This document shows positions 2,781-6,686 of a stretch of DNA of 32,000 bases, piece by piece. Within the stretch, counting starts at the first letter, position 1. Each line of letters opens with the position of its first letter. Origin of the DNA: Candidatus Helarchaeota ASGARD archaeon Hel_GB_B (GTDB lineage: Archaea; Asgardarchaeota; Lokiarchaeia; Helarchaeales; HEL-GB-B); the NCBI GenBank assembly GCA_005191425.1, contig SUPR01000022.1, forward strand, positions 7,494-39,493, read 5' to 3'. Under the pieces are notes generated by a model, which saw only the letters and a list, made by a program, of their open reading frames with translations, made no database searches and was not told the DNA's origin. The position numbers and the translations under genes are program-made.

Positions 2781-3959
2781 TTATTTCATTATTTTAGTAT
2801 CTCTACCCATCCCTATGGAGACAATATTATCGGATGTAACTTCATAGTCGCTAGGTGTTTCATGAGTAATATCTAAATTGACACCTTTTATTGCCTCAGA
2901 ACGTTCTATTCCTAATTTTTCAGGGGTAATACGATTGGTACCAGGATATTTCCATTCAAAAACTCCAGATTTGAAGACAGACTTAGGGATTTTTTTAGGT
3001 TCCTTCGACCCAAGAATTTCCACGTTTAAGCTATCGATAGGCATTGGGATACCATCGTCCCATTGTCGTTCAATTGATGCATGCCATATTTCAGGATGTT
3101 CGTCTTGCATCCATTTTACTCCAATATCTTCGATCCCTTTAATTGAAAAACAATGTGACTGAAAAAGACCCATTATTCGCAATTGATAATCACGACGTTT
3201 CATCATACTCATCATCTGTAAAGTACTGGACCAAGGGATCATTGCTGCATAAAAATCAGGTAATTTGTAAATGCGTTCCGTATTTACCATATCATACATA
3301 AGTCCCATAGCATCATAATTACTTAATTCACATATGATATTTATGGCACAAGAAAGCCAAACTATTGTAGAATGATAGGGAGACGACGACCATTGAGGAG
3401 TCCGCTCATTCCTAACATCTTTTAAGATATCCATGCAAGCATACGCACATTTTGTAAGATTTTTAGTCCGTTTAGGAATCTCGCGTAGTTTATAACCCAG
3501 TTTCATATGTCGCCTGTCTAGAAGTTCATCGTCCTCTTTAACACCAGCAAACCAAAAATCAGCAGGTAATCCGTTCTCCATATGACAATTAATAATGGTG
3601 AAAATTTTTTGAGACATGTCATCTACCAAAATAAATGAACTGTCAATACTTTCGCCATGTAATAACTTCATTGCACCTTGTTGAAGGTCGGATCTTGTAA
3701 GAATAGCAGGGGGAAATATAGTATAAGTTATAACTTTTTCTGGTTCCTTTATTTTACCATCAATTAATTCTTTTGAAGTCATTATGCTTTCAGTCATCCT
3801 AACCCGCATAATCTCTTCAATTATCTCCCTTAAGCTTCTAGTCGCTTTATTCCAAGTTTCCCAGCCAATTTCTTGGTGCATTCTCCAAACATGTCTTGCA
3901 ATTGGTAAATATTTTTTTGTTCTTAAAGAATCATCAATCTCGCCATAAGTATGAAGCAT
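2781..3959 (-). CDS. Hypothetical soluble protein, 392 aa
   Basis: Long ORF, richer in GC than its flanks, GAGGT upstream of the ATG, globular composition; no motif recognised. Confidence 0.85.
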   Translation of the reverse strand: MLHTYGEIDDSLRTKKYLPIARHVWRMHQEIGWETWNKATRSLREIIEEIMRVRMTESIMTSKELIDGKIKEPEKVITYTIFPPAILTRSDLQQGAMKLLHGESIDSSFILVDDMSQKIFTIINCHMENGLPADFWFAGVKEDDELLDRRHMKLGYKLREIPKRTKNLTKCAYACMDILKDVRNERTPQWSSSPYHSTIVWLSCAINIICELSNYDAMGLMYDMVNTERIYKLPDFYAAMIPWSSTLQMMSMMKRRDYQLRIMGLFQSHCFSIKGIEDIGVKWMQDEHPEIWHASIERQWDDGIPMPIDSLNVEILGSKEPKKIPKSVFKSGVFEWKYPGTNRITPEKLGIERSEAIKGVNLDITHETPSDYEVTSDNIVSIGMGRDTKIMK

Positions 3960-4351: not shown

Positions 4352-4885
4352 CTAAATTATTTTGTGGATACCGGCTCTTTCCAGTCCAATGAATAATAAA
4401 TAACCAAGTAAGTTCATAGAGATTAGAGACCCAGTAAAAATCCCGAGATATGTCAACCAGAACGGCATGTTAAGCAGAAACGGCAAATAAGTCCCGACAA
4501 TAAAAGTATTAATGAGGTTCATTAATAGAATAATTAATTGGATATAGATATGCCTTTTTTTGCCGGTCAAATTTTTAATTTTATTAAAGAGATAATAGCC
4601 CAATGAACCTGCAAGTAAATTAGCTAGAGAACCAAAAATAATATCAATCAGTCCGAGACCACCAATTATATTAGCCAAGATACACCCTATTGTTATTCCA
4701 ATAGTGCCAGGATAACCGAAGAAGAAAACAGTGGTAAATAGTGCATCAGCGACCCTAACTTGAGGAATATCCCAAGCGATAGGGATTAAAATTACTAGAA
4801 CAACATAAAGAGCACTAATTATAGCAATTAATGATATATAAATAGATGTATTTTTATTATTTTTTGACAATTTTTTTTCATTCAT
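4352..4885 (-). CDS. queT: QueT-family transporter (predicted queuosine/7-deazaguanine precursor ECF S-component, COG4708-like)
   Basis: QVRVADAL, GITIGCILAN and GLGLIDIIFGSLANL motifs; 5-6 TM; GAGGTG SD at 4899-4894. Confidence 0.85.
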   Translation of the reverse strand: MNEKKLSKNNKNTSIYISLIAIISALYVVLVILIPIAWDIPQVRVADALFTTVFFFGYPGTIGITIGCILANIIGGLGLIDIIFGSLANLLAGSLGYYLFNKIKNLTGKKRHIYIQLIILLMNLINTFIVGTYLPFLLNMPFWLTYLGIFTGSLISMNLLGYLLFIGLERAGIHKII

Positions 4886-4893
4886 TAATATTA

Positions 4894-4971
4894 CACCTCG
4901 AAACCCGGGGTTTATTGATTAATGTGGCGGAACGCGGTTTGAGGCGTACCCACCCGCCACGAAGTCAATAA
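4894..4971 (-). ncRNA. Candidate cis-regulatory structured 5' leader (riboswitch-like) of queT
   Basis: Nested inverted repeats TTATTGA(4912-18)/TCAATAA(4965-71), GTGGCGG(4924-30)/CCGCCAC(4954-60) and ACGC(4932-35)/GCGT(4944-47). The RNA segment CCUCAAACC is complementary to GGUUU(C)GAGG, which overlaps the SD. Confidence 0.55.
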
Positions 4972-4990
4972 TTTCTACCTTAAGAATTCT

Positions 4991-5006
4991 TATATAAATT
5001 TTTTCA
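4991..5006 (-). promoter_or_regulatory. Archaeal BRE + TATA box for the queT leader
   Basis: Minus strand reads ATGAAAAAA-TTTATATA (TATA at 4998-4991). The expected start site, about 25 nt downstream (near 4968), coincides with the first stem. Confidence 0.5.
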
Positions 5007-5126
5007 TTAATATTTTATTAATGAAATAAAGATTGGAAAAAGTTCAATAATTATTTAGTAAAGACAGTAAAGACGGAATTTGGTACCAGAAAAATAGAGA
5101 ACTATTATCTTCAATCAGTATAATAA

Positions 5127-6686
5127 GTGGTGAAAATAAAATATATAAATAATAAAAAGTTAAAAAGAAATATAATTGAATATAGAGAATACCAGGATTC
5201 GATTAGCGATATCTGCTTAGAGAAAAATACATTGGTCATATTACCGACTGCATTAGGAAAAACAATTATAGCGATTTTAACTGCAGTTAAATTATTGGAC
5301 AAAGATGAGAAAATAAAAATTTTAATGCTTGCACCAACAAGACCTTTAGTTGTCCAGCATTTTAATACATTTAAAAATTTATTAAATTATAATAACAAGG
5401 ATTTTACCATATTGACGGGAAAAATTTTGCCCAAAAAAAGGCTTATGGCATGGAATTCTGCTAAATTTATATTTGCTACACCACAAGTAATAAGAAACGA
5501 CTTACAGAACAAAAGATATAATTTAAAAGATATTGGACTTATTATTTTCGATGAGGCGCATCACGCAAGAAAAAACTATGCATATAATTATATTGCTTCG
5601 GAATATATTAAAGGATATGAGAAAACGCGAATCTTAGGTTTAACGGCATCTCCAGGAAAAGATGAAGAAAGTATCAATGAAATCTGTGAAAATTTATTTA
5701 TTGAAGCAATCCAATTTCGCTCGGAATACGATGACGATGTCAAAGATTATATTACGCCAATAACACTTTTTTGGCACAGATTAGAACTACCTGAAGAATA
5801 TAATTTGATTTTAAAAATACTAAGAGATATGGTAGAAGAGAATATACTTAAATTAAAAAGACAGGGTCTATTGATAATTAAATCTACAAAAATAATAACT
5901 AAAAAAGATATATTAGAACTGGGTAAAAAATTAAGAGTAGAATTAAATAGGGCAACAAGGAGAAAAAAGGGATATCTTTATAATGCAATCGTTATTCAAT
6001 CTGCTTTATTGTCGTTAATGCACGGAATTGAATTAATAGAGACGCAAGGACTATTACCATTTTGTAATTTTCTTAGAAAGATTGAGAAAGATGCATTACA
6101 AGGCAAATCAAAATATTCTAAATTAATAGTAGACCATTTAAAATTTGAAAAATTAACCTATTATTGTGAGTTTTATAGGCACATACCAAATCCTAAACTT
6201 GAGAAATTAGCGGTACTTATAAAACAAGAATTGCAAAAAAATGCAAATTCAAAAATAATTGTCTTTAGCCAATATAGAGATACAGTAATACGAATCCAAG
6301 AATATTTAAAGACAATAGATAATGTCAAGGCAATTAAATTTGTCGGACAAACTTCTAAAGAAAATGACCCAGGACTTAAACAAGATGAACAAGCCAGAAT
6401 AATTGAGGATTTTAAAGGAGATAAATATAATGTATTAATAGCGACATGTGTAGCGGAAGAGGGACTAGATATTCCAGCAGTAGATAGAGTAATTTTTTTT
6501 GAGCCAATTCCAAGTGAAATAAGATATATTCAACGAAAAGGTAGGACAAGTCGACACCATATTGGTCGAGTGGACATACTTCTAAATAAAAATACTATAG
6601 ATGAAGCATATTTTGGGGCAGCACTCTCTCGCGAGAAAAAGATGAAAAAAATTATTAAAAAATTAAACAAGAAACTAGAAAAATAA
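5127..6686 (+). CDS. hef: Hef/FANCM/Mph1-family SF2 DEAH helicase, helicase module only (no ERCC4 nuclease)
   Basis: LPTALGKT (motif I), DEAHHA (II), LTASP (III), EEGLDIP (V), QRKGRTSR (VI); ends at 519 aa. Confidence 0.92.
   Translation: MVKIKYINNKKLKRNIIEYREYQDSISDICLEKNTLVILPTALGKTIIAILTAVKLLDKDEKIKILMLAPTRPLVVQHFNTFKNLLNYNNKDFTILTGKILPKKRLMAWNSAKFIFATPQVIRNDLQNKRYNLKDIGLIIFDEAHHARKNYAYNYIASEYIKGYEKTRILGLTASPGKDEESINEICENLFIEAIQFRSEYDDDVKDYITPITLFWHRLELPEEYNLILKILRDMVEENILKLKRQGLLIIKSTKIITKKDILELGKKLRVELNRATRRKKGYLYNAIVIQSALLSLMHGIELIETQGLLPFCNFLRKIEKDALQGKSKYSKLIVDHLKFEKLTYYCEFYRHIPNPKLEKLAVLIKQELQKNANSKIIVFSQYRDTVIRIQEYLKTIDNVKAIKFVGQTSKENDPGLKQDEQARIIEDFKGDKYNVLIATCVAEEGLDIPAVDRVIFFEPIPSEIRYIQRKGRTSRHHIGRVDILLNKNTIDEAYFGAALSREKKMKKIIKKLNKKLEK

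Follow-up and report, generated by a model that had tools for sequence, protein, structure and literature searches.

The queT gene of the Asgard archaeon Hel_GB_B is preceded by a member of an RNA family that has two covarying helices, is linked exclusively to queT and occurs in genomes that depend on salvage. Our comparison of sequences makes it probable that this leader, a predicted H-type pseudoknot, is an OFF riboswitch that acts on translation and senses a 7-deazaguanine, most likely preQ0. An earlier note on this DNA had proposed a structured queT leader that can mask the Shine-Dalgarno (SD) sequence; comparison of copies upholds this core observation, which is here confirmed and greatly extended.

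Within the window (the whole 32,000-nt stretch of DNA that was analysed), the leader lies on the - strand, its letters match those quoted earlier, and the element is present as a single copy in the 3.5-Mb genome. The window's DNA occurs in hydrothermal sediment, and no RNA run was found to contain this sequence. The isolated GC island pointed out before is evident (57% G+C at 4900-4959 vs 12-28% in the flanks), and the gene behind it, already taken for queT, indeed encodes a QueT protein (PF06177). A helicase gene, divergent from queT, begins at 5127, and a 392-aa ORF without Pfam match lies 3' of queT (2781-3959, - strand). The parts of the leader and of the gene, in the order of the mRNA, are as follows.

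4991-4998, - strand: TATA-like box TTTATATA, found by reading the sequence
4954-4960, - strand: P1 5' strand GUGGCGG, whose core GCGG (4957-4954) is invariant in 64 copies
4949-4953, - strand: loop start GUGGG, with little or no variation of GUG (4953-4951) in either phylum
4936-4948, - strand: 5' strand of the loop-to-tail helix, UACGCCUC (anti-SD) then AAACC
4931-4935, - strand: loop end GCGUU, with G4933 and U4931 invariant in 64 copies
4924-4930, - strand: P1 3' strand CCGCCAC, which pairs with 4960-4954 and covaries
4907-4923, - strand: A-rich linker AUUAAUCAAUAAA then CCCC, from the alignment of both phyla
4892-4906, - strand: 3' strand of the loop-to-tail helix, GGGUUU, bulged C4900, SD GAGGUG (4899-4894), UA
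4885-4883, - strand: queT AUG, 8 nt downstream of the SD
4352-4885, - strand: queT ORF of 177 aa, QueT, PF06177, E 3.4e-29

The stretch 4960-4892 (- strand) thus holds a hairpin of 6-7 bp (GUGGCGG/CCGCCAC, P1) whose loop pairs with the GAGGUG SD of queT. The anti-SD UACGCCUC, which mimics the 3' end of 16S rRNA, pairs with GAGGUGUA, and AAACC pairs with GGUUU, around the bulged C4900, giving in this copy a loop-tail duplex of 15 bp and -19.5 kcal/mol (RNAduplex), longer than first described. If the TATA-like box, which stands at the place given in the earlier note, is used, transcription would start at about 4965-4970, a few bases 5' of the hairpin; since such words are frequent in AT-rich DNA, we infer this start with caution, and TATA-like words stand 19-36 nt 5' of the hairpin in the other Helarchaeales copies. 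Note that gene callers begin QueT at the GUG of P1 in L165:2501-3145, in P0015, P0021 and P0031 (which starts VAGGISLARSATT) and in several 209-aa JGI proteins, the leader being translated as a false N-terminal extension; recognition of the leader can help to correct such extensions in annotation.

Folded alone, the mRNA strand of this copy reaches -26.1 kcal/mol, no better than shuffles (nested fold; z -1.1), whereas the + strand folds better than its shuffles (z -3.5). Since a single-sequence fold decides nothing here, we turned to the comparison of copies, and it is this comparison, not folding energy, that supports the leader structure.

The same leader was found before the QueT orthologues of three further genomes from this order, with differences in the flanks and in parts of the loop, and protein look-ups together with a metagenome pattern scan led to a Helarchaeales set of 11 full leaders and one truncated copy. 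These leaders keep GUGGCGG, GUGGG, CCUC, ACC, G-N-G-N-U and CCGCCAC in their 5' part, followed in the 3' part by an A-rich linker ending in AAAY, by CCCGGG and by GAGGU a few bases before the start codon, next to QueT proteins whose mutual identity is only 42-70%. The metagenome scan gave six matches, four of them true and one of these new (L156), and the pattern scan of genome contigs returned mostly GC-rich chance matches, with at least three true copies among the matches listed. Inside the window's own class, the motif is restricted to its own order, and the QueT-like genes (~30% identical) of a sister family of this class have plain AT-rich leaders. As side observations, the entry L030 (DATKTP010000091.1), which holds a Helarchaeales-type leader and QueT of G002, appears mislabelled by its title ‘Candidatus Deferrimicrobium sp.’, and the L166 leader looks degenerate (GUGAG, CCCGGAG, SD GAGA).

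R2, a covariance model for which the Helarchaeales copies were used, returned one strong match per genome in four other Asgard families of a 151-genome Asgard sample, for which the broader model R3 gave counts of 4/4 (f8), 17/19 (f17), 3/3 (f18) and 3/3 (f26). R3, built from Asgard sequences only, also yielded 27 strong matches (E 1e-8 to 1e-17) in 151 Thermoproteota genomes, and all ten that were tested lie upstream of QueT and have a common core with the Asgard copies. The full set comprises 64 distinct leader copies, with one strong match per genome, drawn from Helarchaeales, from four further Asgard families and, in the second phylum, from 27 genomes; models R1-R3 give the window copy 74-90 bits, and it contains the core of this archaeal queT leader family (GCGGGUG...anti-SD...G-N-U-CCGC...AAA-N-CCCG...SD). 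In the samples searched, the motif was found only upstream of queT, the gene behind it being QueT in 18/18 cases tested by Pfam (Asgard 8/8, Thermoproteota 10/10), while the genes around it differ from locus to locus and none is conserved beside queT. The Helarchaeales and f17 branch is marked by the absence of the GAG of GUGAGUGGG, by two additional letters 5' of the P1 3' strand (ACCGNGNU vs CCCGUU) and by a tail CGGG instead of CGG. Weak model matches (L025, L026, L195, L210, L211, L239, L240 and G000:C6:6405-6453) lack the GCGGGUG core by eye and were discarded as spurious.

QueT is encoded in 56 genomes of the Asgard sample, with the motif in 28/56 and absent from 28/56. Among the queT genes without RNA motif, those of the Asgard families f22 and f25 (L241-L246) have the palindromic word TACGTAT(A/T)AATACGTAT at ~20-60 nt 5' of queT. 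This palindrome (TACGTAT...ATACGTA) sits at the queT promoter, with a small divergent gene beside it, and looks like a protein operator that replaces the RNA switch.

Across orthologous leaders, both P1 and the loop-SD helix covary, as expected from the earlier proposal. In P1, which is 100% paired, the variable pairs show G-C, A-U, C-G and U.G (by alignment UA/GC with AU/GC/GU, GC/AU/CG, and GC 32/AU 23/CG 2/GU 1), next to a core of four invariant pairs, GCGG/CCGC, without covariation in 64 copies. Counted over 18 distinct P1s, one variable pair is G-C, A-U, C-G, U.G or G.U in 17 and the other U-A, G-C, A-U or G.U in 14, and the seventh pair is random. RNAalifold, run independently on the 64 sequences, recovered the P1 hairpin with an invariant G.U on top.

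The loop-tail helix consists of a short CC(G) paired with (C)GG, a bulge or small internal loop, and then the anti-SD paired with the SD. Such a duplex is predicted in 38/38 Asgard copies (-8.6 to -19.8 kcal/mol), and the loop-to-SD helix is 78-83% paired vs 39-58% when the partner columns are slid. Among 36 distinct loop/tail combinations, loops pair with their own tails at -14.8 kcal/mol vs -12.1 kcal/mol with swapped tails (mean, sd 0.4), a value reached by 0/200,000 permutations; the swap tests on the 8 Helarchaeales leaders alone are suggestive only (p about 0.08-0.10). Pairs of P1 and the loop-tail helix were also counted in two alignments fitted to P1 only. In A5, 88% of cells are paired vs 81% when shuffled (slid partners 39-58%) and the covariation score is 0.179 vs 0.108, and in A7 the values are 92% vs 88.5% (slid partners 49-58%) and 0.110 vs 0.063, with 0/500 shuffles reaching the observed score in either alignment. 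It should be noticed that these shuffle statistics overstate the significance, since the sequences are related; the direction of covariation is consistent in five Asgard lineages and the second phylum. Examples of compensatory change between the loop and the SD side are CCUCUCA/UGAGAGG, CCUCGCA/UGCGAGG and UUCGCA/UGCGAA, as well as CCACC/GGUGG, UUCCGAC/GUCGGAA and UCUCCCA/UGGGAGA.

Taken together, P1 and the loop-tail helix make up a predicted H-type pseudoknot of about 70 nt, in which the second helix spans 8-15 bp across copies. The smallest natural form (~44 nt, L209) has a 7-bp P1 and a second helix of 8 bp, with GUGG at the start of the loop, UU, and AUAAACCC as linker. From the three nested stems drawn in the earlier note, only the middle one (4960-4954 with 4930-4924) is conserved and covarying, as is the pairing of the loop with the SD; UUAUUGA/UCAAUAA (outer stem) and ACGC/GCGU (inner stem) are absent from the other ten Helarchaeales leaders, and the competing hairpin AAACC-ccg-GGUUU requires a UUU found in this copy alone. 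All three were consequently dropped as family features, being seen only in this copy. A further outer helix was considered for f17 (L169-L186), in which UGGCGAUG, 4-6 nt 5' of P1, is complementary to CAUCGCCA at queT codons ~11-13; it was not adopted, since some copies keep it, L171 by means of a G.U, but L184 disrupts it and L172 and L178-L180 lack it.

Could the element act instead as DNA, or on the other strand? P1 is an inverted repeat (GTGGCGG...CCGCCAC), as an operator would be, and the better folding of the + strand noted above would suit an independent small RNA. Yet in 64/64 copies the element has one orientation and a fixed distance to the start codon of queT, the loop covaries with the SD itself, and the arms of P1, variably spaced by 14-26 nt, change by compensatory pairs so that no single protein-binding word is kept. 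In addition, the wobble pairs of P1 (G.U or U.G in 8 distinct P1s vs C.A in 1) work only on the mRNA strand; the corresponding count in fixed columns of the loop-tail helix (34 G.U vs 40 A.C cells) is mostly register noise. We therefore regard an operator or a + strand small RNA as highly improbable, and the mRNA leader is retained.

Besides the pairs, the family is marked by its letters, as 23 alignment columns are at least 95% identical among 64 distinct sequences from two phyla. Outside the P1 core, these are in the 5' part GUG 4953-4951, the anti-SD C 4941, G4933 and U4931, and in the 3' part A4915, AAA 4913-4911 and CCC 4909-4907 of the linker (at least 95% identical in both phyla), G4906 and the first G of the SD (4899). 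Several have no demonstrable pairing partner; indeed, apart from G4953, which RNAalifold paired with U4931, GUG 4953-4951 stays without one. Unpaired invariant letters at a helix junction together with an A-rich strand resemble, by analogy, small-molecule aptamers of like size, of which preQ1-I is a compact example (PMC11625349), and the A-rich linker may make minor-groove contacts with P1 and form part of a ligand pocket. On paper, other pairings can be drawn, namely the loop GGG with the linker CCC, GCGGGUG with CACCCGU instead of P1, and, as another ‘ON’ pairing, the loop G-run with the anti-SD; since the letters of the pocket and of the alternative ‘ON’ fold never vary, they are without covariation support.

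High invariance, including the four P1 pairs that never covary in 64 copies, would also suit sequence-specific recognition by a conserved RNA-binding protein, for example one sensing a 7-deazaguanine or tRNA-modification status; such a protein would read the invariant letters and either lock the SD-masking helix or open it. In addition, f22 and f25, with a promoter palindrome and no RNA motif, appear to regulate queT differently. We consider such a protein-operated leader unlikely, since no conserved neighbour gene accompanies the motif, which occurs in two phyla with very different genomes, and since a compact pseudoknot with an A-rich linker is typical of small-molecule aptamers (PMC11625349). 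The structure might also work without any ligand, damping translation constitutively, acting on the stability of the mRNA or serving a membrane-protein gene as RNA thermometer. Indeed, SD-masking hairpins are common, the loop-SD helix is strong in several copies (to -19.8 kcal/mol), and the 15-bp helix of the window copy might form without ligand. However, a damper requires complementarity only and not 23 near-invariant positions, many of them unpaired, in two phyla; the motif is bound to one gene family, and the G+C of the carrier loci, from 29% to 62%, argues against a single temperature setting. A ligand-independent role accordingly appears quite improbable, somewhat more so than control by a protein.

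The features expected of riboswitches in general are found here, that is, a conserved and structured 5' leader whose helices covary and which goes with genes of a single pathway, and an expression platform in which the SD is the 3' strand of a covarying helix. In the proposed mechanism, the queT mRNA would start with an H-type pseudoknot of ~70 nt, in which P1 is a hairpin of 6-7 bp. On its 3' side the loop, with the anti-SD CGCCUC and ACC, pairs with the tail GG...GAGGUG behind the A-rich linker, and the second helix buries the ribosome-binding site. Where the two helices meet, the invariant unpaired GUG, G-N-U, AAA and CCC may build a pocket that would bind a 7-deazaguanine base, most likely preQ0. 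Binding of the ligand would stabilise the pseudoknot and turn translation of the importer off, while without ligand the tail would be free and QueT would be made.

The gene content of the carriers fits such a 7-deazaguanine signal, as proposed before. Five carrier genomes were searched (G000, G004, G252, G181 and G161, of which two are closed and 97-98% complete). An ArcTGT-sized transglycosylase is present in 5/5 and is the sole TGT common to all five; QueD was found in 1/5, missing from four, QueF in 0/5, and full-length QueC in 0/5, with only N-terminal PP-loop fragments of 20-36 bits. ArcTGT uses preQ0 as its substrate for archaeosine. Without QueC and QueF, and mostly without QueD, preQ0 is not made and not convertible to preQ1 in the carriers, which need preQ0 for archaeosine yet cannot make it and must therefore import it, QueT being the predicted importer. 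Bacterial queT genes are known preQ1 riboswitch targets (PMC11625349). As the substrate of ArcTGT, preQ0 is the most likely ligand of the archaeal leader, and an OFF switch answering to the imported base, for which preQ0 stands first among the candidates, would be the simplest logic.

A riboswitch built in the same way could nevertheless respond to preQ1 or queuine, to the base of archaeosine, to guanine or some other purine, or to a different QueT substrate. Such another ligand seems unlikely to us, about as unlikely as a regulatory protein. Helarchaeales encode a second TGT (G000:C150:43825-44883, - strand, also G004:C40; a 400-aa ORF, 460 bits on PF01702) that by its sequence looks like the bacterial/eukaryote queuine/preQ1 type and would use preQ1 or queuine. 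Against this, preQ1 cannot be made from preQ0 in carriers without QueF, and the preQ0 user ArcTGT is the one TGT they all have. A paired change also bears on the question: in L157 (a truncated contig) and L165:2495-2575, whose leaders belong to different QueT subgroups, a loop G->U goes together with a tail CCCGGG->CCCGAG. This double change looks like the specificity switches of purine riboswitches, but it also restores Watson-Crick pairs (CUCG with CGAG), so that it may be either a compensation or a specificity change, and the variant may represent a second specificity type. With preQ0 as the preferred ligand, these comparisons support, within the reach of sequence analysis, a new archaeal sensor of 7-deazaguanines that sequesters the SD.

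To our knowledge, few archaeal riboswitches are known. Asgard archaea are the closest prokaryotic relatives of eukaryotes. Our literature searches found no riboswitch class reported for Asgard archaea and no paper describing an archaeal queT leader pseudoknot, and a 2024 review of the preQ1 riboswitch family never mentions archaea. A validated class would show how preQ0-importing archaea regulate uptake of the archaeosine precursor, would supply a natural aptamer for a nitrile-bearing base and would give Asgard archaea an RNA-based regulator; the 44-nt minimal form (L209) is small enough for NMR or crystallography.

The earlier remark that the leader does not match preQ1-I, -II or -III agrees with Rfam 15, where a search of window 4700-5200 (E<=10) gave no preQ1 family and only three unrelated weak matches; six other copies gave no match to any family at E<=1, and seven further Helarchaeales loci none at gathering score. 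Like preQ1-III (RF02680), the archaeal leader stands before queT and has a hairpin-loop anti-SD that docks onto a downstream SD, but preQ1-III has five helices and a pocket far from the SD, whereas the archaeal anti-SD lies inside its only hairpin, and the model gives no match. With preQ1-II (the COG4708/queT motif, RF01054), it has in common the place before queT, an SD held entirely in a pseudoknot helix and purely translational control. However, preQ1-II folds as an HLout pseudoknot, has U-A-U triples and an additional hairpin, P4, and is found in Bacillota only, while the archaeal leader has an A-rich linker without inserted conserved hairpin and no match to this model.

The closest likeness in build is to preQ1-I (RF00522, types 1-3), also an H-type pseudoknot with a hairpin, an A-rich linker and a tail paired to the 3' side of the loop, with the SD in or beside the second helix, and which also governs 7-deazaguanine genes including queT. 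In vitro, preQ1-I binds both preQ1 and preQ0 (PMC11625349). The archaeal leader has the preQ1-I topology, and the topology alone, in that P1 and the loop-tail helix covary and the linker has an invariant AAA; the preQ1-I model (gathering cut-off 39 bits) gives no match. It is larger (~70 nt, 44 nt in L209, vs ~34 nt), its second helix is longer (8-15 bp vs 3-4 bp, with a 5-bp P1 in preQ1-I), and its loop of 14-26 nt has a G-run and an anti-SD that preQ1-I does not have. Its L2 is UU or GNGNU without a conserved C, whereas preQ1-I has its specificity cytidine in L2, its invariant letters (GCGGGUG, G-N-U-CCGC, AAA-N-CCCG) differ, and, unlike preQ1-I, it is so far found in archaea only. As a separate observation, the nearest bacterial QueT homologues (L158:150-252 and L160:378-425) have preQ1-I-like leaders; that of L160, whose other strand holds a T-box, scores 24.7 bits on RF00522, under the 39-bit cut-off, which shows that weak matches get reported.

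Altogether, the archaeal leader works like preQ1-I and preQ1-II but falls outside both classes when their own membership tests are applied. The known preQ1 classes bind preQ0 less tightly than preQ1, and we see an even chance that the archaeal leader represents a fourth structural class of 7-deazaguanine riboswitch, specific to archaea, adapted to preQ0 over preQ1 and common to Asgard archaea and Thermoproteota; if so, this class would date far back in the evolution of archaea and be among the very few riboswitch classes that are native to them.
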